Of a stretch of DNA of 64,000 nt, positions 34,978 to 64,000 are shown piece by piece; within the stretch, counting starts at the first letter, position 1, and each line of letters starts with the position of its first letter. The notes under the pieces were generated by a model. That model saw only the letters and a list, made by a program, of their open reading frames with translations. It ran no database searches and was not told the origin of the DNA. A program made the translations under genes and the position numbers. The stretch comes from Candidatus Hydrogenedens sp. (lineage in GTDB: Bacteria > Hydrogenedentota > Hydrogenedentia > Hydrogenedentales > JAEUWI01): NCBI GenBank assembly GCA_016125095.1, contig WGMK01000010.1, positions 438,149-502,148 on the forward strand, written 5' to 3'.

Positions 34978-36855
34978 TCAGCCCATCCAGTAACCCAGCA
35001 GGTTCCAGTGGTAGAGCCAGGCGAAGGACATCAGTGCGCCCGCGCAGGAGGCGATATAGAGGCCGCGGTCGAGGGGGGCGATGCCTTCCCGGGACCAGCG
35101 CGCGGCGAGCAGCAGCAGGGCCGCGAGGACGCAGGCGACTCCTATCAAGGGAAGCACCAGCGAGGCGGCGAGCGCAGGGGAGGGTCCCCAGAAGATGGCG
35201 ATGGGCACCAGGGTGATGAGGGTGTAGCCGACGACGACGACGAACACGGGCATCAGGATCGCGGTCAGCGCGATCAATCGCCACCCCGCGCGCAGGGGCG
35301 AGACGGTGCCGCGGCGTCGGCGGAGCAGCGCGGCGATAGGCTGCGGCAGGATGAGCAGCAGCAGGGCCAGCGCCATGAAAGCCTGCTGGATGGCGGGGGT
35401 ATCCCACGCGGGCACCTGTTCGAAGGCGGTGGTACCGATGGCAAGCACGGGCGGGGTCGCGTCGCCGGCGGGGAGGAAGGCCACGCGGCGTCCACTGCCT
35501 GGCTCTTCCCACAGGTTGTCGCCGATTGCGGCGAAGGTGCCGCCGTTGAAGTGCAGGCTGCCGTCCGCGTCGAGTTCCGCCTGTCGGTCGTCGAGCAAGG
35601 CGCTGACCTTGGCCAGCGAATGACGCGAGAAGCGCATCATGCGGTACGGTCCGGCGATGCCGGGCGCGTGCGCAAAGGTCTGCCCTGCGGGTGGAGCATC
35701 CGCCGGCTGCGGCACGCCCAGCACCTTGCCGAAGAACAGATCGTTAATCGGATAGACGATGCCGCCGGGATTACCCACGGTGGCCTCGTGGTTGCAGGAG
35801 AAGAAATAGCCGGCATTGAAATCCGGCACGAGGACAAACTGGGTGGTGAAGCCCGAGGTCGAGCCGCCGTGTACGAGCATGCGGACGCCCCGCACGCGGT
35901 CTTCCTCGAAGCCGTAGCACCAGCCCACGAGCCCAGGCGCGTGCCGGAAATGCGTTTCCTGCATCAGCGCCGAGGTCTCCGGCTGGAGAATCCCCCCGCC
36001 GTGCTGCAGGTGGGCGAGCATAAACCGGGTCATGGCGTCGCCCGTCACCATAAACGACCCCGCCGGGTAGTCGTTGCTGTAGTCGTAGGGCATCACCTCG
36101 TAGGCGCCGTTACGGTAAACATAGCCGGTGGCCAGGTTCGGCGTGTCGGCGTCCTGCAGCATGAATCCCGCGTGCTCCATGCCCAGCGGCGCGAGGATGT
36201 GCTCGTCCACGTATTGGTGAAAGGGCATGCCGCTCAGCCGCTCGACCAGATAGCCCGCCAGCGTGTAGCCGTAGTTCGAATAACTGAGGATTTTTCCCGG
36301 CGGAATGATCCGCTCCGGGCGCAGCTTCCGCACGGACTCGGCCAGTGTCAGCCGGTCTTCTTGCGTCAGGGTCGACATCCCGATGTAGCGATCATCGAAG
36401 CCTGCCGTGTGGGTGAGCAGATCGTTTAGCGTAATGGGACCGAAGCCCTGGTCCGGCAGGGCGTACTCTCCCAGCCAGGTGTTTACGTCCGAGGTGAAAT
36501 CGAGCTTGCCCGCTTCTGCCAACTGCATCACTGCCGTCGCCGTGAAGAGCTTCGACACCGAAGCGATGCGGAACAAGGTATCGTCCGCGCTCACAGGTTT
36601 CTTAGTGTCGAGATCCGCAACACCGTAGCCCTGCTTGTAGGCGACCTTGCCATCGGCTACGACGACGAACACGGCCCCAGGCAGATGGCGTGCGGCCATC
36701 TCCTTCTCGAACAGCGCGTCGAAATCGGCTGCCCACGCGGGGGCTTCGGGTTGCTTCGTCTGCGCTACCGACGGCAGGGCGAGCAGGAACAGGGCCGCAG
36801 CCAGTGCGATACATTGAAGAGTCTTTCCCAGATACACGACAACCTCCCCGAGCAA
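34978..36855 (-). CDS. serine hydrolase of beta-lactamase/transpeptidase fold with C-terminal multi-TM domain
   Basis: 625 aa; signal peptide, the S-x-x-K motif SVSK, YSN and HGGST motifs, then about 4 TM helices. Confidence 0.8.
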   Translation of the reverse strand: MLGEVVVYLGKTLQCIALAAALFLLALPSVAQTKQPEAPAWAADFDALFEKEMAARHLPGAVFVVVADGKVAYKQGYGVADLDTKKPVSADDTLFRIASVSKLFTATAVMQLAEAGKLDFTSDVNTWLGEYALPDQGFGPITLNDLLTHTAGFDDRYIGMSTLTQEDRLTLAESVRKLRPERIIPPGKILSYSNYGYTLAGYLVERLSGMPFHQYVDEHILAPLGMEHAGFMLQDADTPNLATGYVYRNGAYEVMPYDYSNDYPAGSFMVTGDAMTRFMLAHLQHGGGILQPETSALMQETHFRHAPGLVGWCYGFEEDRVRGVRMLVHGGSTSGFTTQFVLVPDFNAGYFFSCNHEATVGNPGGIVYPINDLFFGKVLGVPQPADAPPAGQTFAHAPGIAGPYRMMRFSRHSLAKVSALLDDRQAELDADGSLHFNGGTFAAIGDNLWEEPGSGRRVAFLPAGDATPPVLAIGTTAFEQVPAWDTPAIQQAFMALALLLLILPQPIAALLRRRRGTVSPLRAGWRLIALTAILMPVFVVVVGYTLITLVPIAIFWGPSPALAASLVLPLIGVACVLAALLLLAARWSREGIAPLDRGLYIASCAGALMSFAWLYHWNLLGYWMG

Positions 36856-36989
36856 TAGATACGATCACGCCACCCAAGCTGCCAGCGGCGCGCCAGGCCG
36901 GTGGGGCACCATGCCCCCCGGGGCGTCCCAATCTCAACTGTGCGCGTATATCGGAACGCGACTTGCGGCAGGCCGTCCTGCCCGCTAGG

Positions 36990-38435
36990 ATGCCCCGCAT
37001 GGCACTAATTACGATACTGCTCAATCTCATGTCACTGGCTGCTTCTCCGGGCGAGGGCATCCCCATCGAAATTGGCAGCAGCCGCGAAGTCTTTTTCGAT
37101 GCCGCGCTGGTGGAAACCTTCGACGGCACGGAACTCCGCCTGGGGCATCCGGAAGAGCAGGGCACCGTATTGCGCTTCGATGCCCCGTGGGAAGGCCGCT
37201 ATTGCGGATACGTCACGGTTTTTCAGGATGCGGACCGCTACCGCATGTACTACCGCGGGCTGCCCCAGGCGGGCAAGGACGGGTCGGATTCGGAAGTGAC
37301 CTGCTATGCCGAAAGCGCCGACGGCCTGACGTGGACCAAGCCGGACTTGGGCGTGGTGGTTCGAGCAGACGCCCCGGCGAACAACATTGTGCTGGCGGAC
37401 CACGCGCCGTTCTCGCACAACTTCGCGCCCTTTCTCGATACGAACCCCGACGCCCCGGCGGAGGAACGCTACAAGGCGCTGGCGGGCACGGCGAAGACGG
37501 GCCTGCATGCCTTCGTGTCGCCGGATGGCATCCACTGGACCCAGCAGGATGGCGCCCGGATTACCGAAGGCGCCTTCGATTCGCAGAACGTTTCCTTCTG
37601 GTCCGAGTCCGAGCAGCAATACCTCTGTTATTTCCGCACGTGGAGCAAGGGCGAGTTTGCGGGTTACCGTTCGGTCAGTCGTGCGACCTCGAAAGACTTC
37701 CGCACGTGGAGCAAGCCCGAGCCGATGACCTTTGGCAACACGCCGATGGAGCACCTCTACACCAACCAGACGGAGCCCTATTACCGCGCGCCGCATGTTT
37801 ACGTCTCACTGGCGGCGCGGTTCATGCCGGGACGGCGCGTGCTCAGCGCGGCGCAGCAGGCCGCTACCGGCGTCGAGGCGCAATACAGCGGCGATTGCAG
37901 CGACAGCGTGTTCATGAGCAGCCGCGGCGGCACGGCCTACGACCGCACGTTCATGGAAGGCTTCATCAAGCCGGGGCTGGATCCGAACGACTGGACCTCG
38001 CGTACGAATTATCCCGCGCGGGGCATTGTGCCGACGGGCGAACACGCCATGTCGTTCTACGTGCAGCGCGACTACGGCCAGCCCACCGCGCACCTCGTGC
38101 GCTACAGCCTCCGGCCCGATGGTTTCGTGTCCGTCTGGGCACCCTACGCGGGAGGAGAAATGCTGACGAAGCCCCTCGTGTTCAGCGGCAATTCGCTGCA
38201 CCTCAACTTCGCCACCTCCGCCGCGGGCGATGTCCGCGTGCAAATCGAGTCCGCCGAAGGCGAACCGCTGCCGGGGTATGCCTTCGAGGACTGCACCGAA
38301 ATCATCGGCAACAACCTCGATCACGCGGTCGAATGGAACGGCAGCACGGACGTATCCAGCCTCGCCGGGCAGGCCATCCGCCTGCATTTCCAGATGAAAG
38401 ACGCCGAACTCTACGCGATTCAGTTTGTGGAGTAA
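36990..38435 (+). CDS. secreted putative glycoside-hydrolase-like protein (beta-propeller-like fold suspected)
   Basis: Start chosen at MPRMALITILLNLMSLAASPGEG (signal peptide). W/Y-rich repeats; no precise family can be assigned. Confidence 0.45.
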   Translation: MPRMALITILLNLMSLAASPGEGIPIEIGSSREVFFDAALVETFDGTELRLGHPEEQGTVLRFDAPWEGRYCGYVTVFQDADRYRMYYRGLPQAGKDGSDSEVTCYAESADGLTWTKPDLGVVVRADAPANNIVLADHAPFSHNFAPFLDTNPDAPAEERYKALAGTAKTGLHAFVSPDGIHWTQQDGARITEGAFDSQNVSFWSESEQQYLCYFRTWSKGEFAGYRSVSRATSKDFRTWSKPEPMTFGNTPMEHLYTNQTEPYYRAPHVYVSLAARFMPGRRVLSAAQQAATGVEAQYSGDCSDSVFMSSRGGTAYDRTFMEGFIKPGLDPNDWTSRTNYPARGIVPTGEHAMSFYVQRDYGQPTAHLVRYSLRPDGFVSVWAPYAGGEMLTKPLVFSGNSLHLNFATSAAGDVRVQIESAEGEPLPGYAFEDCTEIIGNNLDHAVEWNGSTDVSSLAGQAIRLHFQMKDAELYAIQFVE

Positions 38436-38458
38436 GGGGGATAGCGGGCGATCGGTAG

Positions 38459-39088
38459 GGCGAGCGTACCCGCGAGCCACTGGGCCGGAGCGTTCGGCTC
38501 ATGGGGACATTCGCCCCACCCTGCGGCCACGGTGATGCTGGACCGGAGCGATCGTATCGCATCTTCCGTCATTGCGAACGCAGTGCGGCAACCTCCTTGG
38601 CGCGTGGGTGTCCATGCGGAGCAGGGTACCGACACCACCGTGCTGGCGGCGGTCTACATGACATTTCTGCGTCGCCGCATCAAAGAGGTTGCCGCGCTCC
38701 GCTCGCAATGACGATGTTGGCGGCCTGGAGGGAGGAAACCCGCGTGATGACGCTGTAAGCGCGGCGGCATGGTAGGGCGAATGTCCCCATGAGCCGAGCG
38801 CGCCGGTCCAGTGGCTCGCGGGTACGCTCGCCTTACCGTGCGGCCATCGTGATGTGCTGGACCGGAGCGGCTGTATCCCTCTTACCGTCATTGCGAACGA
38901 AGTGCGGCAACCTCCTTGGCGCGTGGGTGTCCATGCGGAGCAGGGTACCGACACCACCGTGCTGGCGGCGGTCTACATGACATTTCTGCGTCGCCGCATC
39001 AAAGAGGTTGCCGCGCTCCGCTTGCAATGATGACGTTGGTGGTCTGGGCTCCGGTCCCATAGGTCCCATAAGCCCCATGGGTCCCATG
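38459..39088. repeat. complex structured repeat array: two ~210-bp units, each preceded by a 57-bp element in opposite orientations, plus (G/A)GYCCCAT heptamer repeats
   Basis: 57-bp inverted repeat at 38459-38515 vs 38776-38832. Units at ~38516-38730 and ~38833-39050 are ~95% identical. Each unit contains a 27-bp internal inverted repeat (38570-38596 vs 38685-38711). Heptamers lie at 39053-39088. Confidence 0.85.
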
Positions 39089-39113
39089 AAATATTGCGCG
39101 CGGCGACGTCGCC

Positions 39114-41645
39114 CTACTTCACGACCAGGTTCACCATCTTGCCGGGGACGTAGATTTCTTTCACCAGCGTGACGCCTTCGAGGTACTTGGCGACGCCTTC
39201 GTCGGCTTTGGCGGCGGCGAGGATGTCGTCTTTGCCGGCGTCGGCGGGCACGGCCACCTTCGCGCGGAGCTTGCCGTTCACCTGCACGGGCAGCTCGATG
39301 GTGGATTCCACCAGCAGCGATTCGTCGTAGGCGGGCCAGGGCTCGTAGGCGAGGGTATCGGCATGGCCGAGGCGCTGCCAGAGTTCTTCCGCGAGATGCG
39401 GCGCGAAGGGCGCGAGCACCAGCACGAATTGCTCCGCAGCGGCGCGGTCGACCGATTCGGCCTTGAGCGCGGCGTTCACGAATTCCATCATGCGGGAGAT
39501 GGCGGTGTTGAACAGCAGGTGCTCGATATCGTGCCCCACGGCCTTGATGGTCTTGTGCAGCTGCTTGGTCACTTCGGCGCTGCCGCTTTCCGCCACTATG
39601 CGCGGGTGCAGGCCGCCGTCTTCCGTCACATAGAGCGACCACACGCGCTTGAGGAAGCGGAACACGCCCTGCACGCCTTCGTCGTTCCACGGCTTCTCGC
39701 GGTCGAGCGGCCCCATGAACATCTCGTACAACCGCATCGAATCCGCGCCGTACTCGCGGATCACGTCGTCGGGATTGACTACGTTAAACCGCGACTTCGA
39801 CATTTTTTCGACCTGGGTATTTACCGGCTCGCTGGATTCCTTGGCATGCCACTGGTCGCCGCGCTTTTCCACCTCGTGCGGGTAGTAATACTTCCCCTTC
39901 GCATCGCGGTACGAATACGCGAGAATCATCCCTTGGTTAAACAGCTTCTGGAAAGGCTCGCTGGTGCTGACGTGTCCGGCGTCGTAGAGGACCTTGTGCC
40001 AGAAGCGCGAGTAGAGCAGGTGGAGCACGGCGTGTTCGGCGCCGCCGATGTAAAGATCGACGGGCATCCAGTATTGCTCGGCCTCCTTGCTCCAGGCCTC
40101 GTCCGGGTTGCGCGGATCGCAGAAGCGCAGGTAGTACCAGCACGAGCCCGCCCACTGCGGCATGGTGTTGGTTTCGCGCTGCGCGGGCGCGCCGGTCTCG
40201 GGGTCCGTGGTATTCAGCCATTCCTCGGCGCGGGCGAGCGGCGGCTGGCCGTCGGCCGTGGGTTTGTAGTCCGTCAGTTCGGGCAGCAGCACCGGCAGGT
40301 CGTTCATCGGCAGCGCCTTCACGGTGCCGTCCTCGAGCCGGACAATCGGGAAGGGCTCGCCCCAATAGCGCTGGCGCGAAAACAGCCAGTCGCGTAGTTT
40401 GTAGTTCACGGTGCCCTTGCCGATGCCCTCGGCCTCGAGCCACGCCGCCATCTTCTTCTTGGCGGTCGGCACGTCGAGTCCGTCGAGGAAGCCGGAATTC
40501 ACGAGCGTGCCGTTGCCGGTCCAGGCCTCTTCCTGCACATCCACCTCGCCGCCGCCGATTACCTCGATGATATCGAGGCCGAACTTCTTCGCGAACTCGT
40601 GGTCGCGGGTGTCGTGCGCGGGCACGGCCATAATCGCGCCGTAGCCGTATTCAGCCAGCACGTAGTCCGCCGTCCAGATGGGCACGAGCTTGCCGTTCAC
40701 CGGATTGATGGCATGCGCCCCGGTGAATACGCCGGTCTTCTGCTGCTCGTCGCGCATGCGTTCCTGCGCGCTCTTCTTCTTCGTAGCCTCGACATAGGCC
40801 AGCACCTCGGCGCGCTGGGCCTCCGAGGCTATCTCGAGCGTGAGGGCGTGGTCGGGCGCGAGCACGCAATAGGTGGCACCGAAGAGCGTATCGGGCCGCG
40901 TGGTGAACACGGTGAACTCGTGCCCGGCATCCGCCACCTTGAAGGTCACGTCCGCGCCTTCGCTGCGGCCGATCCACTCGCGCTGCATGGCCTTGATGCC
41001 TTCCGGCCAGTCCAGATCGTCCAGTCCCGACAGCAACTGCTCGGCGTACTTGGTGATGCGCAGCATCCACTGCCGCATCATCCGCTTCTCCACCGGGTCG
41101 CCCGTCTCCACGTAGACGCCGTCCTTCACCTCTTCATTGGCGAGCACGGTGTTCAGCGCGGGGCACCAGTTCACCGGCGCCTCGATTTCATAGGCCAGCC
41201 CGCGTTCGAGCAGCACGGTGAAAATCCACTGCGTCCACTTGTAGTAATCCGGGTCCGTCGTGTTGATCTCGCGGTCCCAGTCGTAGGAAAGCCCCAGCGA
41301 CTGAATCTGCTGACGGAAGGTGTCGCAGTTCTTGTTGGTAATGATGGCCGGATGCTCGCCCGTGCGCACGGCATGGCGCTCGGCCGGCAGGCCGAAGGCG
41401 TCCCAGCCCATCGGGTGCAGCACGTTGAAGCCCTGCATCCGCTTGTAGCGCGCGACGATGTCGGTGGCGGTGTAGCCTTCCGGATGCCCCACATGCAGCC
41501 CCGCGCCGCTCGGATAGGGGAACATGTCCAGCACGTAGTACTTGGGCCTGGACGTGTCGAGCGTGGTCTTGAAGGTCTTCTTCCCGACCCAGAAGTCCTG
41601 CCATTTCTTCTCAATCGCGTGGAATTCGTACGTGCCGCCGGACAT
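39114..41645 (-). CDS. leuS: leucyl-tRNA synthetase
   Basis: HIGH-region [18 protein letters not shown] and a KMSKS motif ([10 protein letters not shown]). Start chosen at [16 protein letters not shown]. Confidence 0.93.
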
Positions 41646-41834
41646 GGTTATACATACCTCAGAATGCGTGTAATGCGGGGAAAGCGCCAAGGATAGCACA
41701 CGAAAGCCGCGCGTTGCGCCAAGACGGTAAACTCTTTGTGCGGCTGCGCCGCAAGGTGGAGGCTCTCTCTTCGAGAGGATGCCATGCTATCGTATCCACC
41801 TGAACCGCAATTCCTTCCGGAGACGTCCCGTTTC

Positions 41835-42737
41835 ATGTGTCATCTCCTTGCTGTTTTTCTGATGCTGCTGTGCGGAGGCGCCGCCGCCCAGCCCGGCCCG
41901 CCGCCGCGTCCGTCGGTGCCTCCGCGTCCGGTCGCGCCGACTTCCCCTACGCCGGAGGGCGAGGGCCAGGCCGAGTTGCGCATCACCATCGAGCCCGGTC
42001 CCCCGCAGCCTGGCGCGCCGGCGATGCAGGCGGTGGTGCACTATCAGGACCGTGTTGCATGCACACGGGCGCTGCCGGCGGGTGCGAACCTGGCGCTGCC
42101 GTTGAGCGACGGCGTGGATGTCACGGGCGATGGCGTGCCCGACGCGGTCATCGAGCTCTATACCGGCGGGGCGCACTGCTGCTACAACTACCTGATTCTC
42201 GGCGGCGACAACCCCTGCATCCCGGCGGCCACGCTGAACGCGGCCAACAGCGGCGTGGAAATCCAGAACATCGACGACGACCCGGCGGCGGAATTCCTCG
42301 CGGCGGACTGGACGCTCGAGTATTGGAACGCCGACTACGCCGACAGCCTGTCGTTCTACGCCATCCTTGAGTTCAAGGACGGGGCGCTTGTACCGGACCA
42401 GCAGGCGATGCAGTTGCCTGCGCCGGAACCCGAGGATAAGGAGAAGCTCGAGGCAATTTTCGCGGAAACCTGGAACGAACCCGACCCGCCCGGGTGGCAT
42501 TGCGAGCCCCGGGTGCCGCGCGCGTGGTACGAGCGCGCGGGCAAGCTGGTTTACGGCGGCAACGGCGAAGTCGCTCTCGCGCTCATGCGGGCCACCTTCC
42601 AAGGCACCGAAGCCGAGGCAAAGGCCGCCTGCGAGGGGTTCTTCGCCCAGTTGTCCAAGAGCCCTTGGTGGCCCGGCATCGCCGCCATGAACGGCTGGGA
42701 AGGCGAAACCCCGGAAACCATCTGCGCCGAACGATAG
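41835..42737 (+). CDS. secreted hypothetical protein
   Basis: Start chosen at MCHLLAVFLMLLCGGAAAQP (signal peptide). A Pro-rich linker follows, and no known motifs are recognisable. Confidence 0.45.
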   Translation: MCHLLAVFLMLLCGGAAAQPGPPPRPSVPPRPVAPTSPTPEGEGQAELRITIEPGPPQPGAPAMQAVVHYQDRVACTRALPAGANLALPLSDGVDVTGDGVPDAVIELYTGGAHCCYNYLILGGDNPCIPAATLNAANSGVEIQNIDDDPAAEFLAADWTLEYWNADYADSLSFYAILEFKDGALVPDQQAMQLPAPEPEDKEKLEAIFAETWNEPDPPGWHCEPRVPRAWYERAGKLVYGGNGEVALALMRATFQGTEAEAKAACEGFFAQLSKSPWWPGIAAMNGWEGETPETICAER

Positions 42738-43100
42738 AGATGGATGGCATATTCCGGCCTAACCACGGCAGTGGTTAATTGATTGTAGCCCCGGGTCGGT
42801 CGGCGTCTTCGACGACCCACCCGGGGTAAAGCGGCCGCCATGACAACCGCGGAAGCGGTTGATGAAATTCTCGCTTGGCCAAGCCGGTTCAGCAACCGCT
42901 GCCGCGGTTGGTTGTGGACCGCGTTTGTCCCCGGGTAGCTCCGCGAAGCGCGGCGCAACCCGGGCTTCGATAAATCAACTGCTGCCGCAGTTGGGAAGAG
43001 CGGACCGTTACGCCTGCACGATACTTCCGCCGTCGGGACGCTGGCGCGCCCTCGTAAGTGGTTGCTATACTTCCGGCTTCGTATTCACCGGGAGCCGTAC

Positions 43101-44342
43101 ATGAGCCACGAAACCACCATTACCGTCGAGGTCCGCGAGGACCATTTGGACCTGTTGGCGCGCACGAAGCCGATGACGGCGCTGGCGGAACTGATCTGGA
43201 ACGCGCTGGACGCCGAGGCGACCGAGGTGCGGGTGGTCTTCGAGGAGAACGAACTGGGCGGGCTGGAGGCGGTGCGTATCGTGGACAACGGCACGGGCCT
43301 GCGGCACGACGACGCGCTCATCGTCTTCCGGAACCTGGGTGGCTCTTGGAAGCGCCAGGGGCCGCGCACGACGGACCGCCCGCGCGCACTGCACGGCAAG
43401 TTCGGCAAGGGCCGATTCCGCGCGTTTTCGCTGGGACACGACGTGCGCTGGAATTCGGTGTTCGAAGACCAGGGCCAGCGCCGTACCTTCACCGTGAGCG
43501 GCAAGGCCTCGCGCCTGGGCGAGTTCGTGGTGAGCGATGCCGAGGGGGCCGATGCCGCTGCCGGCATGCAGGTGGAAATCACCAACGTGTCGAACGCCGC
43601 AAACCTGTTGCGCGGCGTGAAGGCGAACCAGGAAGTGACCGACACCTTCGCGCTCTACCTGCGCCAATACCCGGGCGTGCGGATTATCTACGACAACACC
43701 CCGCTCGACCCCGCGAATTCGGAGCGGCACTTTACCGAGTACGCCTTGGAGCCGATGGTGACCGAGAACGGCGATCCGGTGACGGCAGCGCTGACGGTGG
43801 TCGAGTGGAACATTTCCGGCAAGCGTGGCGTGTTCCTGTGCGACGCCGAGGGTTTCGCATTGCACAACGGGCTGCCCCGGCTGCATTTCCGGGGCTTCAG
43901 TTATACCGCGTACATCAAGTCGTCGCACATCGAGGCGCTCGAGCGGCAGGGCCTGCTGCAGGCGGGAGAGCTTTCGGCCGATGTGCGACAATTGCTCGAC
44001 GCAGCGCGCGCCAAGCTGCGCGAGCACTTCGCGCTGCGCGAAGCCGAGCGCGCCCAGGACGTGCTCGCCGACTGGCGGGAGATGGGATTATACCCCTACG
44101 CAGGCGAGCCTCGGGATGAAAATGAATCCAACGAGCGCCGCATCTTCGATATCTACGCCACCCACTTGAACCAGATCTCGCCCGATTTCGCTTCGTGGCC
44201 ACTACAGAACAAGCGTCTGGTCCTTCAGCTCATCCAGGAACTCGTGCGCACCGAGCCGACCCGGGTCGCCCATATTCTCGACAGCGTCATCGAATTTCCG
44301 GAAGAGAAGGAGGGGGAAATTCTGGAGTTGGTACAGTCATGA
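43101..44342 (+). CDS. GHKL-superfamily ATPase (HATPase_c_3/MORC-like Bergerat fold) with ~250 aa C-terminal domain of unknown function
   Basis: Bergerat-fold motifs ELIWNALDA (ExxxNxxD), VDNGTGL (DxGxG) and GKFGKGRF (GxxGxG). The stop overlaps the downstream gene start (ATGA). Confidence 0.65.
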   Translation: MSHETTITVEVREDHLDLLARTKPMTALAELIWNALDAEATEVRVVFEENELGGLEAVRIVDNGTGLRHDDALIVFRNLGGSWKRQGPRTTDRPRALHGKFGKGRFRAFSLGHDVRWNSVFEDQGQRRTFTVSGKASRLGEFVVSDAEGADAAAGMQVEITNVSNAANLLRGVKANQEVTDTFALYLRQYPGVRIIYDNTPLDPANSERHFTEYALEPMVTENGDPVTAALTVVEWNISGKRGVFLCDAEGFALHNGLPRLHFRGFSYTAYIKSSHIEALERQGLLQAGELSADVRQLLDAARAKLREHFALREAERAQDVLADWREMGLYPYAGEPRDENESNERRIFDIYATHLNQISPDFASWPLQNKRLVLQLIQELVRTEPTRVAHILDSVIEFPEEKEGEILELVQS

Positions 44343-46243
44343 TTCTCACCACGTCCCTTGCTTTCGTCGCTGCCACGCTCGCCGCCGATTCGCTTCCGGA
44401 ATCCATCCGGCTGCCGTACAACCATCCGGGGCTGGTGGTCGACCTCGGCGTGGGGCTGTGGGCTTCGCCCTTCCCGATGGATTTCGACGGCGATGGCGAC
44501 CCGGACTTGCTGGTGGCCTGTGCCGACACGCCGAGCAACGGCATCTACTTCTTCGAGAACCCCGGCGGCTCGGACACGCCGGTGTTCAAGCCCGGGGTGC
44601 GCATCGGCGAGGCGGTGCACAACACCACAATTTCCTATACCGGCGGCAAGCCGATCATGGCACGTCCGAAGGAAGTCTATCCGGACTTCGGCCCGGACGG
44701 CTGGGGCAAGCGCGAAAAGATAGACTTTGTGTTCAAGGAGGATCTCGGCAAGACGCGGGCGAACCAATGGAAGTTCGCCGACTACGACGGCAACGGCGCG
44801 CGCGACCTGGTCCTCGGCATTGGCGTGTGGGCGGACTACGGCTGGGACGACGCCTGGAACGAACGCGGCGAATGGCAGAACGGGCCGCTGCACGGCTATG
44901 TGTACGTGGTGCCGAATACGGGAACGAATGACGCGCCGGAATACGGCGAGCCTTTCCGTGTGCAGGCGGGCGGCAGCGATGTCGATACCTACGGCTGCCC
45001 CTCGCCCAACTTCGCGGACTTCGACAACGATGGCGACCTCGACCTGTTGACCGGGGAGTTTCTGGACCGGCTGACCTACTTCGAGAACACCGGTACGCGC
45101 TCCGAGCCGGTTTATGCCGCCGGGCGGTTCATCCAGCAGGACCGGAAGACCCTGCATCTCGACCTGCAAATGCTCCAGGTGGTGGCCTTCGATTGGAACC
45201 AGGACGGCCACACGGACGTCATCGTCGGCAAGGAAGACGGTCGTGTGGTGTACCTGCGCCACACGGGCTGGCAGCAAGGTGGCGTGCCCTTGTTCGATCC
45301 GCCGGTGTATTTCCAGCAGGAGGCGGTGCATGTGAAAACCGGCGCACTATCGACGCCGTATGGCATCGACTGGGACGGCGATGGCGACGACGATATTCTC
45401 TCCGGCGACACGGCGGGCTACCTCAACTTCGTTGAAAATCTCGGGGGCGATCCGCCGCAGTGGGCGGCACCGGTTTACCTGAAGGCCGACGGCGAGACGA
45501 TCCGCATCCAGGCCGGTCCGAACGGCAGCATCCAGGGGCCAGCCGAGGCGAAGTGGGGCTACACCGTGCTGAACGCCGCCGACTGGAACCACGACGGCCT
45601 GCCAGACCTCGTCATCAACTCCATCTGGGGGCGCGTCGAGTGGTTCGAGAACATCGGCACGCGCACCGAGCCGAAGCTCAAGGCCGCCCAACCCATCGAG
45701 GTGGAATGGAAGGGGAAGACGCCCAAGCCCGCATGGACCTGGTGGAAGCCGAAGGGCGACGAACTGGTGACGCAATGGCGCACGACGCCCATCGTCTACG
45801 ACTGGAACGGAGACGGCCTGAACGACCTCGCCATGCTCGACACCGAGGGGTACTTTTCCCTGTACGAGCGCGCGAAGAAGCGGCGCAAGCTGGTGCTGCT
45901 GCCGCCGCAGCGCGTGTTTCTAGACGAAGCCGGCCAGCCGCTGCGCCTGAACGAGCGCACCGCGGGCGGCAGCGGACGCCGCAAAATCGCCGTGACCGAC
46001 TGGGATGGCGACGGCCTGCCCGATTTGCTACTGAACAGTTCCAGCGCGGACTGGATGCGCTGCGTGTCGGCGGAAGGCGGCACCTGGCGTTTCGCCGCGC
46101 CGCAATTGCTCGACGGCCGCAAGGTGGCCGGCCACACCAGTTGCCCCGCCACGGTGGATTGGGACCAGAACGGCATTCCGGATCTGCTGGTAGGGGCCGA
46201 AGACGGCTTCTTCTACTACCTGAAGAATCCGCGTTCGAAGTAG
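44339..46243 (+). CDS. secreted FG-GAP/VCBS-repeat beta-propeller protein
   Basis: Signal peptide MILTTSLAFVAATLAA. Nine or more FG-GAP-like repeats (DFDGDGDPDLLV, DYDGNGARDLVLG, DWDGDGDDDILSGD, DWNGDGLNDLAMLD ...). Confidence 0.75.
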   Translation: MILTTSLAFVAATLAADSLPESIRLPYNHPGLVVDLGVGLWASPFPMDFDGDGDPDLLVACADTPSNGIYFFENPGGSDTPVFKPGVRIGEAVHNTTISYTGGKPIMARPKEVYPDFGPDGWGKREKIDFVFKEDLGKTRANQWKFADYDGNGARDLVLGIGVWADYGWDDAWNERGEWQNGPLHGYVYVVPNTGTNDAPEYGEPFRVQAGGSDVDTYGCPSPNFADFDNDGDLDLLTGEFLDRLTYFENTGTRSEPVYAAGRFIQQDRKTLHLDLQMLQVVAFDWNQDGHTDVIVGKEDGRVVYLRHTGWQQGGVPLFDPPVYFQQEAVHVKTGALSTPYGIDWDGDGDDDILSGDTAGYLNFVENLGGDPPQWAAPVYLKADGETIRIQAGPNGSIQGPAEAKWGYTVLNAADWNHDGLPDLVINSIWGRVEWFENIGTRTEPKLKAAQPIEVEWKGKTPKPAWTWWKPKGDELVTQWRTTPIVYDWNGDGLNDLAMLDTEGYFSLYERAKKRRKLVLLPPQRVFLDEAGQPLRLNERTAGGSGRRKIAVTDWDGDGLPDLLLNSSSADWMRCVSAEGGTWRFAAPQLLDGRKVAGHTSCPATVDWDQNGIPDLLVGAEDGFFYYLKNPRSK

Positions 46244-46349
46244 CCCGCCGCCGGTAGGCATGGCTCGGAAACGCCGCTCGGAGTGCGCATCGTTTACTTG
46301 CCCATAGGGCGGGCTTTATAATCCGCAGTCTTTGGCGCAAGGAGTCGAT

Positions 46350-47363
46350 ATGATACGCGTAGGGATAGTGGGAGCGACGGGATACGGCGGCCGGGAAATC
46401 ATCCGGGTGCTGCTGGGACATGCCGGGTCGAAGCTGACGATGCTGGCCTCGACGAGCCGCGTCGGCCAGCACGCCGACGAGGTGCTGCCCGCTTTCCGCG
46501 GCGCGACCGATCTGACCTTCGAGGCCTACGACGCGAAAAAGCTGGCGTCGGAATGCGACGTCGTGTTCATCGCCGTGCCGAGCAAGGAATCCATGGAACC
46601 GGCGGCGGAACTGGTGGCCGAGGGCGCGCGGGTTATCGACATCGGCCCGGATTTCCGGCTGAAAGATCCCCACGCCTGGGAGTTGTACTACGGCACGCCG
46701 CACCGGGTACGCGACCTGCTGCCGGACGCCGTATACGGGCTCGTGCCCTGGTACCGCGAGGCCATCAAGAATGCCAGCCTCGTGGCGGTGCCGGGTTGTT
46801 ACCCCATTAGCATTATCCTCGCGCTGCGGCCCATCCTGGACGCCGGCCTGTCCGACGTCCCGATCGTCATCGACGCGATCTCCGGCGCATCGGGCGCGGG
46901 GCGCGGCCTGGCAGAAGGGCTGCATTTCGCGGAATTGAACGAAAACGTCCGGGCCTACAAGCTGGGCGTGCATCAGCATGTGCCCGAAATCGAGCAGGAA
47001 TTGCAGTACAAGACCGTGGTGCAGTTCACGCCGCACGTGGGGCCCTACACCCGGGGCATTCTGTCCACCATCACCGTGCGGCCGAAGCACCTGTTCGACC
47101 CCGCGCCGTACTTCGAGGTGTATAAGAACGAGCCTTTCGTGCGCGTGCTGGGCGAGGGCACCCTGCCCGAGCTGAACCACGTGCGCGGCTCGAATTACAC
47201 CGACGTGGGCTGGAAGCGCGACGAGCGCACAGGCAACCTGCTGCTCGTGAGCGCGGTAGACAACCTGATGGGCGGCACTGCGGGCATGGCCGTGCAGTGC
47301 ATGAACCTTATGTTCGGCCTGGACGAAGCCGAGGGCCTGCGGATTGGAGCGCTGTCGCCATGA
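46350..47363 (+). CDS. argC: N-acetyl-gamma-glutamyl-phosphate reductase
   Basis: GATGYGG Rossmann motif and the active-site region AVPGCYP. Confidence 0.9.
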   Translation: MIRVGIVGATGYGGREIIRVLLGHAGSKLTMLASTSRVGQHADEVLPAFRGATDLTFEAYDAKKLASECDVVFIAVPSKESMEPAAELVAEGARVIDIGPDFRLKDPHAWELYYGTPHRVRDLLPDAVYGLVPWYREAIKNASLVAVPGCYPISIILALRPILDAGLSDVPIVIDAISGASGAGRGLAEGLHFAELNENVRAYKLGVHQHVPEIEQELQYKTVVQFTPHVGPYTRGILSTITVRPKHLFDPAPYFEVYKNEPFVRVLGEGTLPELNHVRGSNYTDVGWKRDERTGNLLLVSAVDNLMGGTAGMAVQCMNLMFGLDEAEGLRIGALSP

Positions 47364-48571
47364 GTAAGGCCATCGAAGGCGGCGTCTGCGCCCCCATGGG
47401 ATTCCGGGCTGCCGGTGTCGCCGCAGGCATCAAGAAGCCCGGCAGCGAAAAGAAGGACTGCGCGCTGATCGTTTCGGACACCGAGGCGACGGCGGCGGGG
47501 CTGTTCACCACGAACCTGTTCAAGGCCGCGCCCGTGCGATGGACCGAGGGGGTGTGTATCCGGGGCAAGGCTCGGGCCGTGTTCTGCAACAGCGGCGTGG
47601 CCAACGCGGTCACCGGCAGCATTGGGCTCGAGAACGCCCAGCGCATGGCCGAGGTCGTCGCGGCGGGAATCGATGCGCCCATCATCCAGGTCTGCGTGGC
47701 CAGCACCGGGGTCATCGGCATGCAGCTGCCCATGGACCGGATTGAAAAGGGCATCGCGGGCTGCCTCGAGGCTTTGCGCCCCGACGGCGGAGCCGATGCC
47801 GCGCGCGCTATCATGACCACCGATACCGTGCCGAAGGAGATGGCGGTCGAGGTGGAGTTGAGCCTCGGTTCGGTGCGTATTGGCGCCATCGCCAAGGGCT
47901 CCGGCATGATCAATCCGAACATGGCGACGATGCTCGCGTATATCACCACGGATGCCGCCCTGAGCAGCGAGGCGCTCGATGCCGCGCTCCGGCCTGCCGT
48001 GGATAATTCATTTAACTGTATCTGCGTCGACAACGACATGAGCACGAGCGACATGGTCGTGTGCCTCGCCAACGGCGCGGCGGGCCTGCCGTCGCTCAAG
48101 CCGGGCACGCCCGATTTTGCCGTCTTTGCCGAGGCGCTGCACGAGGTCTGCACCGCGATGGCGCAGGCGCTGGTGCGCGACGGTGAAGGCGCGAGCAAGT
48201 TTATCGAGATAGCGGTGGCGGGCGCGGCGGACGACGCGACGGCCAAGCAGATCGCGCGGGCCATTGCGCAGTCGCAACTCTGCAAGACGGCCTTCGCGGG
48301 TGAAGACGCCAACTGGGGCCGCATCGCCTGCGCGGCGGGCTATTCCGGCGCGGCCTTCAATCCGGAGCGCGTGTCCATTTCGCTGAGCGGACTCGAGGTC
48401 GTGCACGAGGGCCTGCCGACCGGCTACGCCGAGACGGATGCCGCGGCCCGCATGAAGGAGCACGACATCCGCATCGATATCCGCGTGGGTGACGGCGCCG
48501 GTTCGTGCGTATTCTGGACCTCCGACCTCACGCACGAGTACGTTTCTATCAACGCCGACTACAGGTCCTGA
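47360..48571 (+). CDS. argJ: bifunctional ornithine acetyltransferase / N-acetylglutamate synthase
   Basis: ArgJ-like throughout (GFRAAGVAAGIKK, MTTDT, ATMLAYITTDA); ATGA overlap with argC. Confidence 0.9.
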   Translation: MSKAIEGGVCAPMGFRAAGVAAGIKKPGSEKKDCALIVSDTEATAAGLFTTNLFKAAPVRWTEGVCIRGKARAVFCNSGVANAVTGSIGLENAQRMAEVVAAGIDAPIIQVCVASTGVIGMQLPMDRIEKGIAGCLEALRPDGGADAARAIMTTDTVPKEMAVEVELSLGSVRIGAIAKGSGMINPNMATMLAYITTDAALSSEALDAALRPAVDNSFNCICVDNDMSTSDMVVCLANGAAGLPSLKPGTPDFAVFAEALHEVCTAMAQALVRDGEGASKFIEIAVAGAADDATAKQIARAIAQSQLCKTAFAGEDANWGRIACAAGYSGAAFNPERVSISLSGLEVVHEGLPTGYAETDAAARMKEHDIRIDIRVGDGAGSCVFWTSDLTHEYVSINADYRS

Positions 48572-48575
48572 AGCG

Positions 48576-49448
48576 ATGGCGATTCAACACGCGATTGACA
48601 AGGCGCAGGTGCTCATCGACGCCCTGCCGTACATCCGGGATTTCGAGGGCAAAACGGTCGTCATCAAGTACGGCGGCGCGGCCATGCTCGATCCCGAGCT
48701 CCGGCGCAGCACGGCGGAAGACATCGTGCTGATGAAATACGTCGGCATGAATCCGGTCGTCGTGCACGGCGGCGGACCGTCGATTAACCAGTACCTCAAG
48801 CGCCTCGACATCCAGTCGCAGTTCAACAGCCAGGGCCTGCGCATCACCGACGACGCCACCATCGAGGTGGTCGAGATGGTGCTCGCCGGCCAGGTGAACA
48901 AGGACATCGTGAGTCTGCTGAACCTGCACGGCGGCGATGCCGTCGGCCTATGCGGCAAGGACGGCAACCTGCTGTTCGCGCGCAAGATCGACACCGAGGA
49001 CGGCAGCGACATCGGCCACGTGGGCCGCATCACGGGCGTGCACACCCGCGTGGTCAATACGCTCACCAAGGCGGGATTCGTGCCCGTGATCGCGCCGATC
49101 GCCACCGACGGCGAGGGCGGCACCTGGAACATCAACGCCGACACCGCGGCGGGCGAAGTGGCCGCCGCGCTGAACGCAGAGAAGCTGGTATTCCTTACGG
49201 ATACCCCCGGCCTGCTGCGCGACGTGAAGGACGTCGGATCGCTTATCCACCAGGTGCGTTCCAGCGACGTGGCAGAACTCCGCGCCGCGGGCGTCATCGC
49301 CGGGGGCATGATTCCCAAGCTCGAGGCCTGCCTCCGCGCGCTCGACTTCGGGGTACGCAAAACCCATATCATAGACGGGCGGGTTCCCCATAGCCTGCTG
49401 CTCGAGATTTTCACCAAAGAGGGGCTCGGCACCCTCGTCAGCCACTAG
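48576..49448 (+). CDS. argB: acetylglutamate kinase
   Basis: VIKYGGAAM, VVHGGGP and the AAK-family fold; the start lies 4 nt after the argJ stop. Confidence 0.9.
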   Translation: MAIQHAIDKAQVLIDALPYIRDFEGKTVVIKYGGAAMLDPELRRSTAEDIVLMKYVGMNPVVVHGGGPSINQYLKRLDIQSQFNSQGLRITDDATIEVVEMVLAGQVNKDIVSLLNLHGGDAVGLCGKDGNLLFARKIDTEDGSDIGHVGRITGVHTRVVNTLTKAGFVPVIAPIATDGEGGTWNINADTAAGEVAAALNAEKLVFLTDTPGLLRDVKDVGSLIHQVRSSDVAELRAAGVIAGGMIPKLEACLRALDFGVRKTHIIDGRVPHSLLLEIFTKEGLGTLVSH

Positions 49449-49475
49449 TCCGATTCCGGAAACGAAAGGTTCGTC

Positions 49476-50120
49476 GTGGACGTATCGTCTATCATTGCAT
49501 TCGATTTCATGCAGCAGGGCGGCATTCTCATGTGGCCCATCCTGCTGTGCTCCATCATCGGGCTGGGCATCGCCATCGAGCGCTTCATCGCGCTGCGCCG
49601 CGCCAGCATCGACACGCAGGAATTCATGGACACCATGCGCCAGGTGCTGCGCCAGCACCGCATGCAGGAAGCCATCGAAATCTGCGACAAGACCGACGCC
49701 CCGGTGGCCCGCATCCTGCGCGCGGGCGTGCTCAAGCACGACCGTCCCAAGGAGGACATCCGCGAGGCCATCCAGGACGCCGGCAACCTCGAGATTCCGC
49801 GGCTGGAGCGCTACCTCTCGGCGCTGGCCACCTGCGCCAACATCGCGCCGCTGCTCGGTCTGCTGGGCACCGTGTCCGGCATGATCACCGCCTTCGCCCA
49901 GATTCAGAACAAGCGCGGGCAAGTGAACCCCTCCGACCTCGCCGAGGGCATCGGCAACGCGCTCGTCACCACGGCCTTCGGCCTCACGGTCGCCATCCCC
50001 ATGCTCGTGCTCTACAATTATTTCACCACGCGCGTGGACAACATGATCATCGAAATGGAAATCAGTTCCTCCGAACTGGTGGAACTGCTGACCCAGAACC
50101 AGAACAGCCGCGAAATCTAG
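49476..50120 (+). CDS. exbB: MotA/TolQ/ExbB proton-channel family protein
   Basis: Three TM helices and the conserved C-terminal TM region (ANIAPLLGLLGTVSGMI..F; LVTTAFGL.VAIP). Confidence 0.8.
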   Translation: MDVSSIIAFDFMQQGGILMWPILLCSIIGLGIAIERFIALRRASIDTQEFMDTMRQVLRQHRMQEAIEICDKTDAPVARILRAGVLKHDRPKEDIREAIQDAGNLEIPRLERYLSALATCANIAPLLGLLGTVSGMITAFAQIQNKRGQVNPSDLAEGIGNALVTTAFGLTVAIPMLVLYNYFTTRVDNMIIEMEISSSELVELLTQNQNSREI

Positions 50121-50123
50121 GCC

Positions 50124-50564
50124 ATGAAGTTCATCCGGCACCGCCAGCGCAAGGTTACCGCGAACGTCGAAATGACCCCGCTCATCGACGTCGTGTTTCA
50201 GTTGCTCATCTTCTTCATGCTCTCGTCCACCTTCGTGGTGCAGTCGTCCATCCCGATTCAGGACCCGATTTCCGAGAACGCGGGCGCGATGGAAGCGAAG
50301 GATGTGACGGTCACCATCCAGAACAATACGGGTGGCCCCGGTGGCCTGGGCTCCATTTATATCGACGACGTCGAGATCCAGGAGATGGAAGAACTCGTCG
50401 CGACCCTGGCCGAACTGCATCGCGAGAATCCCGAGGCGATGGTCCTGATACGTGCCGACGCCAATGTAACCACCCAGCGGCTTATCCAGGTGCTCGAGCA
50501 AGTGACCGCGTCCGGCATCGAGAAATACGGCATTGGTGCCATAAGTCCGTCCGGAAGCTCGTAA
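50124..50564 (+). CDS. exbD: biopolymer transport protein ExbD/TolR
   Basis: N-terminal motif EMTPLIDVVFQLLIFFM with a single TM helix; 146 aa. Confidence 0.8.
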   Translation: MKFIRHRQRKVTANVEMTPLIDVVFQLLIFFMLSSTFVVQSSIPIQDPISENAGAMEAKDVTVTIQNNTGGPGGLGSIYIDDVEIQEMEELVATLAELHRENPEAMVLIRADANVTTQRLIQVLEQVTASGIEKYGIGAISPSGSS

Positions 50565-50565
50565 C

Positions 50566-51399
50566 GTGGCGATGAAGGCGCCGGACCACGCACGCGAGGC
50601 GCGCCAGCGCGAGGCCATCGAGCGGGGGTTCCGGCCGAAGCGGCAGTGGAAGAACGTGTTCACCTTTGGCCTGGCGGTGAGCGCCGTGCTGCACCTGAGC
50701 GCCGTGACCCTCTTCCGCATCGTCATCTACTTTCCGCGTGAGGATATCCACTACTACGACTTCAGCGTGGTCGAGGTAGCGGCGCCGGTAGCGGTCGCCG
50801 AGTCCACGGAAGCCTCGGTCGACCCTGCAACGGGCGATAACCCGCTGAAGCTGGCCGACCGCCTGCCCGCTATCAATCTGCCGACCCTTGAGTTCGCGGA
50901 ACTCGAGCGGCTGCGTGTGCGCCAGACAGGCTACGAGGAAGCGTCGCTCTACGACCAGCTCTATGGTCGCGATCGTTCGCCGCTCGAGGTGGTGGGGGAG
51001 GGGCTGGCGAAACTCGGCAGCGAAGTGCGCCGCCTGACCCTGGGCGAGCCGCTGGATCTGAAACTGAGCAAGCCCGCCTCGGCCGTCGGCACCTTCAGTC
51101 CGGCGCGGGGATACGAGGGGCGGCTGGTCTGGATAGAGCGAAACGCGCCCCGGGCGCTGCTGTTCTCACCACCGCTGCAGGCCCTTTATAACCTGCGTGG
51201 AAACGAGACCCTGGAGATGGTGCTCAAGGTGGATGCGTCCGGCAAGGTGACCAGCGCCTACAGCGCGGAGACGAGCGAGAGCGAGGTATTCGATGCCGTA
51301 CAGGCCTCGCTCTTCCAGTTCCGTTTCGAGGCCGACGACAACCTGTTGCTGCCGGAGAGCGTGAACCTGATCATCCGTCCGGAAACGGTGAGCCCATGA
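50566..51399 (+). CDS. TonB/TolA-like energy-transducer family protein (tentative)
   Basis: N-terminal TM anchor, a linker and a C-terminal beta-rich domain. It follows directly after exbB-exbD. Confidence 0.45.
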   Translation: MAMKAPDHAREARQREAIERGFRPKRQWKNVFTFGLAVSAVLHLSAVTLFRIVIYFPREDIHYYDFSVVEVAAPVAVAESTEASVDPATGDNPLKLADRLPAINLPTLEFAELERLRVRQTGYEEASLYDQLYGRDRSPLEVVGEGLAKLGSEVRRLTLGEPLDLKLSKPASAVGTFSPARGYEGRLVWIERNAPRALLFSPPLQALYNLRGNETLEMVLKVDASGKVTSAYSAETSESEVFDAVQASLFQFRFEADDNLLLPESVNLIIRPETVSP

Positions 51400-51758
51400 T
51401 CGAGATCTCGCTCAGCTGGGCGCTGCTGATGTACAGCGTCATTCTCTCCGCAGGCGGCTTCGCGCTCTGGCTGTATACTGAACTCACGGAACGCAAGGTG
51501 CACCGTGTGCTCGAGAATCAGCACCTGTGGCGCTGCACCTTCTGCGCCTTTGTCTACCTCGACGAGGAGGCGCAGGATTTCAGCGAATGCCCGCGCTGCC
51601 ACAGCCTGAACCGCATCGACGACGCCAACGTGAAGCCCTACCGCGTGAAGTACGCAGAGCAGCCGGTCGATCATTCCGAGGGCCGGAAGAACACCTCGAA
51701 GCAGAAACGGGGACGCGCCACCACCCGCGGCCCCCGCCGCCGCGGCGGACGCCGGTAG
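51396..51758 (+). CDS. small membrane protein with zinc-ribbon (CxxC...CxxC) and basic tail
   Basis: TM helix, then CTFCAF...CPRCHS; ATGA overlap with the upstream gene. Confidence 0.5.
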   Translation: MIEISLSWALLMYSVILSAGGFALWLYTELTERKVHRVLENQHLWRCTFCAFVYLDEEAQDFSECPRCHSLNRIDDANVKPYRVKYAEQPVDHSEGRKNTSKQKRGRATTRGPRRRGGRR

Positions 51759-63767: not shown

Positions 63768-64000
63768 AGCGTCGAGCAGGCCTGTAAGCCGGGTTCTGTC
63801 TAGGGGCCGGAGCCCCCGAGACGGCCATTCATCTGGGATACGCGTCGCCGCGCACCTCAAGCTTCCTACCCGGGAGCAACGCGGGCCGCGCCATAGCTCC
63901 CCTATTTGGAATTGCACCGGGTGGGGTTTAGCGAGCCGCCGTGTCGCCACGGCGCTGGTGCGCTCTTACCGCACCTTTTCAACCTTGCCTGTGCCTTACG
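63768..64000 (-). ncRNA. rnpB: RNase P RNA (type A), 3' ~230 nt; gene continues beyond window end
   Basis: The minus strand reads ...GGUGCGGUAAGAGCGCACC...CCACCCGGUGCAAUUCCAAAUAGGGG...CCCGGGUAGGAAGCUUGAG...CCAGAUGAAUGG...ACAGAACCCGGCUUA, which is collinear with E. coli M1 RNA. Confidence 0.85.

Follow-up and report, generated by a model that had tools for sequence, protein, structure and literature searches.

The window analysed here is a 64,000-nucleotide stretch (GC content ~63%) from a metagenome-assembled genome (MAG) of Candidatus Hydrogenedens. The subject is a pair of overlapping genes on its forward strand, the first encoding an ATPase of the GHKL type and the second a predicted exported beta-propeller built from FG-GAP repeats, which an initial annotation had picked out as a possible two-gene system. 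The features of the pair are:

43101..44342, plus strand: GHKL ATPase gene, 413 aa, ATG at 43101 and TGA at 44340-44342
43188..43211, plus strand: GHKL motif I, ExxxNxxD (E30-x3-N34-x2-D37)
43284..43298, plus strand: GHKL motif II, DxGxG (D62-N-G-T-G66)
43395..43412, plus strand: GHKL motif III, GxxGxG, ATP lid (G99-K-F-G-K-G104)
44339..44342, plus strand: ATGA in which the GHKL stop codon overlaps the FG-GAP start codon, read from the sequence
44339..46243, plus strand: FG-GAP/VCBS beta-propeller gene, 634 aa, predicted exported

Both proteins and their junction are as initially described. Pfam HATPase_c_3 matches the GHKL protein, which is identical to NCBI GC168_07625, with E = 8.7e-15 (55.4 bits, cutoff 25), and the three motifs are all present, motif I carrying the catalytic glutamate and the Mg-binding asparagine. 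Residues E30, N34, D37, D62, G64, G66, G99, G102 and G104 are invariant in 57 homologues, and the predicted ATP site is intact. At the junction, cagtcATGAttctc, the FG-GAP ATG at 44339 shares a 4-base overlap with the GHKL TGA. The propeller scores above the cutoffs of both FG-GAP/VCBS families, Pfam FG-GAP_3 (PF13517; E = 5.2e-32, 110.7 bits, cutoff 26.9), which covers five repeat stretches, and PF01839 (50.4 bits, cutoff 22.1), and its N-terminus is hydrophobic (MILTTSLAFVAATLAA|DS), with a signal-peptide-like part at ~aa 1-16; typical signal peptides are present in its relatives, with which the alignment begins at ~residue 24. The GC content at third codon positions (GC3) is 0.84-0.85 in both genes, with the codon-position GC pattern of real genes, and the ratio of nonsynonymous to synonymous substitution rates (dN/dS) against relatives is 0.13-0.23 over the two genes (0.17-0.23 for the GHKL gene). 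Purifying selection and the GC3 pattern together identify both as genuine coding genes.

The 4-base ATGA overlap is not distinctive in these genomes. The window has a further ATGA at argC/argJ and another 4-base overlap at 51396-51399, and a related locus (L084) contains four such junctions, some of which join unrelated genes, such as those for MaoC-like and OYE proteins. A propeller gene follows the GHKL gene only in the window, in L084, in L087 and, interrupted, in L085, the GHKL proteins of these loci being 76-83% identical to that of the window. L084 and L087 come from distinct genomes; their GHKL product is identical to P0002 and 83% identical to the window protein, and both keep the order hypothetical protein, GHKL, ATGA, FG-GAP. 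This three-gene block lies in L084 between other flanking genes than in the window, whereas in L087 it is again beside leuS (minus strand), with a beta-lactamase-family gene then in place of argC. The blocks [leuS], [argC-argJ-argB-exbB-exbD-two ORFs (open reading frames)], [hypothetical-GHKL-FG-GAP] and [beta-lactamase-family gene] occur in three different orders and orientations in the window (34978-51758), L084 and L087, which indicates recent local rearrangement around the two genes.

In L085, where the GHKL protein is 76% identical, the propeller gene is still downstream, the ATGA junction is absent and 2.4 kb have been inserted. Placed exactly between the GHKL and FG-GAP genes (L085:3046-5183), it holds a 139-aa ORF and, on the opposite strand, a gene for a 457-aa protein, which is a defence reverse transcriptase of the AbiP2 type (DRT; PADLOC E = 1.4e-187); no Rfam group II intron was detected in the insertion, and the junction may be a small insertion hotspot. 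Both genes are intact despite this insertion, so the coupling is dispensable. The propeller is gone from L086 (GHKL 68% identical), and the pair is likewise absent from L088. The ATGA coupling, the conservation of which the initial annotation had put forward as a check, is kept only in the window, L084 and L087.

We surveyed the two families separately. The GHKL survey took one genome per GTDB species and comprised 80 loci, flanked on either side by up to 10 kb, and three look-up loci, 83 in total; tblastn found no match to the window propeller, the 318-aa protein encoded upstream of the GHKL gene, argC or argJ in any of them. The propeller survey covered 80 metagenomic loci (664 kb) with relatives 26-61% identical, and none of the 80 contained a GHKL homologue by tblastn or by the family profile; among the 69 tabulated propeller loci (L091-L159), 47 have at least 1.3 kb upstream. 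A conserved two-gene GHKL and FG-GAP system across diverse genomes is therefore not supported. For a joint system of ATPase and exported propeller, or a relation of chaperone and client between them, there is no co-occurrence beyond four closely related genomes, an outcome that the initial annotation had itself named as refuting its reading.

A narrower proposal is that the two genes, possibly together with the 318-aa protein, constitute a young, lineage-specific functional operon in which, for example, the ATPase regulates the expression of exported proteins. It is in keeping with this that the hypothetical-GHKL-FG-GAP block stays together while its flanks differ (window, L084, L087), that the ATGA junction is kept in three genomes and that a consensus scan revealed no terminator-like site between the GHKL and FG-GAP genes. 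However, the block is limited to relatives with at least 76% GHKL identity, the 2.4-kb insertion in L085 left both genes intact, the two families are otherwise independent in 160 loci and ATGA overlaps are common between unrelated genes here, the MaoC-like/OYE junction of L084 among them. We regard such an operon as quite improbable.

The GHKL gene has another, far more persistent companion. Clustering of 1,242 ORFs from the 83 loci returned leuS as the sole recurrent neighbour, in 17 Hydrogenedentota loci, where it is usually the next gene downstream of GHKL on the same strand. The pairwise identities of GHKL and LeuS proteins are tightly correlated across the 13 genomes having both (r = 0.95, Mantel p = 0.0005). 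The closest homologues of the window protein (at least 120 listed) are 409-460 aa long, 62-83% identical and mostly labelled Hydrogenedentota, and identities across the Hydrogenedentota loci span 45-83%. Among 1.84 billion representatives, the short clade amounts to one full-length 50%-identity cluster (P0081) and a 299-aa fragment (P0121). In a neighbour-joining tree the Hydrogenedentota short forms make up one clade, nested among long forms from Planctomycetota and Verrucomicrobiota. Synteny with leuS, co-divergence with leuS and the single clade fit vertical inheritance of the short GHKL gene. The GHKL clade thus has an unrelated housekeeping gene as its recurrent neighbour, a finding that speaks against the pairing with the propeller.

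Some loci in this set depart from the leuS arrangement or carry unexpected labels. In L005 and L016 recA, not leuS, directly follows the GHKL gene, 28-60 bp downstream on the same strand, and in L054 recA lies two genes upstream; two of these three recA-adjoining loci are labelled 'uncultured Nitrospirales' and one Kiritimatiellae. Seven loci (L005, L008, L016, L026, L033, L035 and L029) come from MAGs labelled 'uncultured Nitrospirales' or 'Nitrospiraceae' and carry a Hydrogenedentota-type short GHKL gene, with products 47-67% identical to the window protein (47-48% for L033 and L035, 56% for L029). The copies so labelled fall within the Hydrogenedentota clade of the tree, and these bin labels may be mistaken or serve as placeholders. 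In a groundwater Hydrogenedentota MAG, a HEPN/nucleotidyltransferase (Polbeta) toxin-antitoxin-like gene pair is located just downstream of leuS (L001:13435-14122).

The initial annotation had assigned to the ATPase a 250-aa uncharacterised C-terminal domain. The region exists, but in the structural model it is made up of an Hsp90/MORC-like middle domain followed by a helical bundle. The layout of the protein is a GHKL domain at ~aa 1-190, the middle domain at ~aa 191-285 and the bundle at aa 293-412, and the AlphaFold model (AF2, pLDDT 85.4) correspondingly shows a Bergerat fold first, then a middle domain of mixed alpha/beta structure and last the helical bundle. With Foldseek, the N-terminal plus middle (N+M) domains of TRAP1, Hsp90 and HtpG and the ATPase modules of MORC2/3/4 match over ~400 columns (E down to 2e-13, TM-scores 0.35-0.42), so that the likeness to MORC, Hsp90 and TRAP1 extends over the predicted fold of residues 1-~400 (E 1e-13 to 1e-10). 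Sequence similarity, in contrast, is confined to motifs I-II, with PDB matches to MutL/Mlh1 at E = 2.7e-06 and to MORC2 at E = 0.035, and the window protein has no CW, coiled-coil or Hsp90 C-terminal domain. A weak likeness to BbrUII/HgiDII-type restriction enzymes and to MutL is limited to profile matches over the first ~130 residues, far below threshold (33.5 vs a cutoff of 550 for BbrUII, 37.8 vs 180 for MutL), the remainder of the protein being unmatched.

Memberships in the families suggested by these matches were considered and rejected. In PADLOC and NCBIfam, the REase_II, BbrUII, MutL and Hsp90 matches of the window protein are all sub-threshold and restricted to the GHKL domain. The MutL profile TIGR00585 reaches 37.8 bits against its cutoff of 180 and aligns to residues 23-77 only; the Hsp90/HtpG profile NF010683 reaches 26.2 bits against a cutoff of 455, and the C-terminal dimerisation domain is missing.

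Another reading of the pair gives the GHKL protein the role of an Hsp90-like chaperone or assembly factor acting on the propeller: TRAP1/Hsp90 N+M domains head the Foldseek matches, and misfolded-protein sensing has been speculated for GHKL-type Shedu (bioRxiv 10.1101/2023.08.10.552793). Against it, the signal-peptide-like N-terminus implies membrane passage of the propeller in an unfolded state, the NCBIfam Hsp90 model gives 26 bits, with a cutoff of 455, to a protein that does not have the Hsp90 C-terminal dimerisation domain, the propeller has thousands of homologues with this ATPase nearby in 0 of the 80 loci examined, and GHKL orthologues occur with no propeller neighbour. The lack of co-occurrence largely refutes this reading, which we find scarcely credible.

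The provenance of the short protein emerges from its longer relatives. HMMER searches with the window GHKL protein recovered 507 representatives at E < 1e-30; among the 150 listed, most are 640-700 aa long and align to residues 6-412 of the window protein, and the long relatives of ~660 aa do so with 30-41% identity (E 1e-64 to 1e-95). In the genome scan the long forms came from Actinomycetota, Planctomycetota and Verrucomicrobiota, and neither they nor the short forms from outside Hydrogenedentota have a conserved neighbour in the genome-scan loci. The additional C-terminus of the long forms, ~250 residues, contains an invariant D...ExK, with D near 510 and K near 526-545; 19 of 21 such C-termini give a weak match to Pfam HSDR_N_2, and an AlphaFold model of the region (pLDDT 91) has MspJI, EcoO109I, EndoMS, HamA and McrC as best PDB matches. 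The modelled fold is that of a PD-(D/E)xK nuclease. A search of PDB sequences with the nuclease-domain profile gave nothing meaningful, a word-indexed search that used the long-form C-terminus yielded nothing but fragments lacking Pfam annotation, and PADLOC reported for the long forms only REase_II matches, over the GHKL region.

The window protein ends at residue 413, inside the helical linker after which the long forms continue into the nuclease. The nuclease-domain profile, which matches 36 of 36 long-form loci, finds nothing in the window translated in all six frames, nor in any of the Hydrogenedentota loci. Judged from these alignments, the window protein is a nuclease-less derivative of a paraMORC3-like family of ATPase-nucleases. 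In the most divergent loci of Hydrogenedentota (cluster c6), the gene of ~245 aa that follows the GHKL gene was considered as a split-off nuclease and discarded; it has no match to the profile and its product looks exported. Short forms (386-435 aa) occur also in L039, L054, L059 and L060, from Opitutales, Kiritimatiellae, Fibrobacteria and a beta-proteobacterial MAG; that of L039 has a marginal match to the nuclease profile (E = 0.004), and the nuclease may have been lost more than once, or some of these four may be pseudogenes.

The paraMORC3 proteins, predicted in 2008, combine a GHKL domain, an S5 domain and a nuclease of the RE fold and are often stand-alone, with no conserved neighbours, although unlinked partners were raised as a possibility (Iyer, Abhiman & Aravind 2008, PMC2292703). 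The architecture was later reclassified as GHKL-type Shedu, type I-D (PMC12137116; bioRxiv 10.1101/2023.08.10.552793), and Gu et al. speculated that the N-terminal domains of GHKL-type Shedu sense misfolded proteins (bioRxiv 10.1101/2023.08.10.552793). One member, VcSduA of Vibrio cholerae (A1552VC_00276), protects against T1-like phages and needs both the ATPase residue E27 and the nuclease residue K557 (E27A and K557A mutants; PMC12137116). The window protein resembles these in having the GHKL domain at the very N-terminus, with the motif I glutamate at position 30, compared with 26-31 in the long relatives and 27 in VcSduA, followed by a middle 'clamp' domain and a helical linker. The long relatives, moreover, are stand-alone, sporadic and plasmid-borne, as described for paraMORC3 (PMC2292703). 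The window protein differs in the missing effector, the C-terminal nuclease, and the Hydrogenedentota clade differs in being vertically inherited with leuS and not mobile.

Homologues of the long form are present on 42 plasmid records. The one plasmid neighbourhood examined, that of Psychrobacter plasmid pP62BP1 (L089; NC_019274.1 9533-11488), places a 651-aa long form beside Drt2 and a Dcm/LlaMI restriction-modification pair; its sole annotation is 'ATP-binding protein', and it is likely an unannotated GHKL-nuclease defence gene. The defence link drawn in the initial annotation hence applies to the wider family, with its nuclease, its plasmids and, on the plasmid examined, its Drt2 and restriction-modification neighbours.

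A further proposal is that the short GHKL protein is still an immune protein, one that senses phage in the manner proposed for VcSduA-type proteins and acts through a nuclease or other effector encoded elsewhere, as a split Shedu-like system to which the propeller is unrelated. The closest relatives outside Hydrogenedentota are of the defence type in architecture and context, the short protein has kept its ATPase motifs, a DRT gene sits beside the L085 copy and a HEPN/MNT pair near the L001 copy, and Iyer et al. (PMC2292703) had raised unlinked partners for paraMORC3. However, neither a nuclease remnant nor a partner is seen in the window or any Hydrogenedentota locus, leuS is the only conserved neighbour, and co-divergence with leuS at 45-83% identity is unlike the patchy, fast-turning distribution typical of defence genes. 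We consider a split defence system unlikely, if less so than a functional operon with the propeller.

The interpretation that we prefer, with a probability of about 0.72, is that the two genes are functionally independent, that the GHKL gene is a vertically inherited nuclease-less derivative of the ATPase-nuclease family and that its adjacency to the propeller gene is recent. The cytoplasmic GHKL and middle-domain ATPase would have come from a stand-alone paraMORC3/GHKL-type Shedu (type I-D) ATPase-nuclease, with loss of the C-terminal PD-(D/E)xK nuclease no later than the base of the Hydrogenedentota clade. The remaining ATPase-clamp module would then have been passed on vertically, mostly beside leuS, under purifying selection and with its ATP site intact, and the short protein may be a dimerising clamp driven by ATP, with DNA as its probable target (or else a partner protein) and with a host role, not that of a self-contained restriction enzyme. 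The second gene would encode a Sec-exported FG-GAP/VCBS propeller acting outside the cytoplasm on sulfated or sialylated glycans. The adjacency and translational overlap of the two genes would date from a recent ancestor of one small lineage within Hydrogenedentota, in which the ATGA makes co-transcription likely; the overlap probably reflects genome compaction, not a shared pathway.

Several points weigh against this interpretation. Retention of the ATGA junction in three distinct genomes, with both genes under purifying selection, leaves some room for a lineage-specific functional link between the GHKL and propeller genes. The tree is a simple neighbour-joining tree and as such indicative only, and the genomes seen number ~40 at the species level, the status of 'core gene of the phylum' reaching beyond this sample. 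The DNA-clamp role of the short protein is suggested by homology. The assignment of the family to Shedu would follow from architecture, with VcSduA likened by description; the long-form nuclease matched neither Pfam DUF4263 nor PADLOC SduA, and no Shedu chain was among the Foldseek top 50.

A more specific version of the preferred interpretation can be offered tentatively, as possible though far from probable: an immune ATPase-nuclease of the paraMORC3/GHKL-Shedu type may have been domesticated at the root of Hydrogenedentota, losing the nuclease, becoming a vertically inherited gene linked to leuS (with recA directly after it in some lineages) and now serving the host as an ATP-driven DNA clamp. 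If true, this domestication would be a bacterial counterpart of the origin from prokaryotic conflict systems that has been proposed for eukaryotic MORCs. The new element that is left is modest and evolutionary: within one phylum, a known family of defence ATPases has a variant that lacks the nuclease and is inherited vertically. After the prediction of the family in 2008 and the anti-phage validation of one GHKL-nuclease of the same architecture, here is a clade that has lost the effector and kept a fully conserved ATPase. Such nuclease-less derivatives are test cases for what the GHKL clamp senses or does by itself and for how immune modules are recruited to host functions. The GHKL-propeller pair, on the other hand, does not merit further treatment as a candidate system for defence or chaperoning.

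The propeller belongs to a very large, well-conserved family of exported proteins of ~640 aa, which the survey flags as recurring in glycan-utilisation contexts. More than 6,800 homologues were found, and the protein identical to that of the window is named 'VCBS repeat-containing protein' by NCBI; the closest homologues (120 listed) are ~640 aa long, mostly 57-66% identical and from Hydrogenedentota and Planctomycetota. Some homologues are fused to BNR sialidase-like or LamG domains, and the recurrent neighbours elsewhere (loci L091-L170) are sulfatase, DUF1501, SSF (sodium:solute symporter) and DHDPS-family lyase genes. These associations suggest that the propeller takes part, outside the cytoplasm, in using sulfated or sialylated glycans, and the ~640-aa propellers may be an uncharacterised glycan-active family. 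No solved structure was detectable by sequence, and the propeller has no NCBIfam match.

The gene order around the pair is beta-lactamase-family gene (minus strand), 581-aa ORF, leuS (minus), 318-aa gene (plus), GHKL (plus), FG-GAP (plus), then argC, argJ, argB and exbB onward (plus), a housekeeping neighbourhood and not a defence island. The features nearest to the pair are:

39114..41699, minus strand: leuS, leucyl-tRNA synthetase (Pfam tRNA-synt_1_2, tRNA-synt_1, Anticodon_1)
41781..42737, plus strand: hypothetical protein of 318 aa, ATG at 41781, from translation
42738..43100, no strand: intergenic spacer of 363 bp upstream of the GHKL gene, from the sequence
46293..46322, plus strand: terminator-like hairpin (46297-46313) and promoter-like site between the FG-GAP gene and argC, from a consensus scan

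Here leuS is divergently oriented relative to the GHKL gene. The 318-aa protein has a hydrophobic, lipobox-like N-terminus and a Pro-rich linker, with no Pfam or PADLOC match. A 300-aa gene occupies the position immediately upstream of the GHKL gene in L084 and L087, and comparison of the window gene with its L084 counterpart gave dN/dS = 0.26; beyond the closest relatives the 318-aa gene does not accompany the GHKL and FG-GAP pair. A putative promoter of the GHKL/FG-GAP transcript probably lies inside the spacer at 42738-43100, where the consensus scan found no sigma-70 site and Rfam no family; the sigma-70 and terminator scan is weak, its counts being no better than in shuffled sequence. Rfam and tRNA scans returned nothing near the two genes.

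Two further elements of the window may be recorded. The 581-aa ORF upstream of leuS (36690-38435) has no Pfam match; a homologue 43% identical to it is found at L116:2079-3413, 2.6 kb upstream of a propeller paralogue, a single case that may be due to chance. At the far end, an RNase P class A RNA (RF00010, 173 bits) occupies positions 63769-64000 on the minus strand and is cut by the end of the window.

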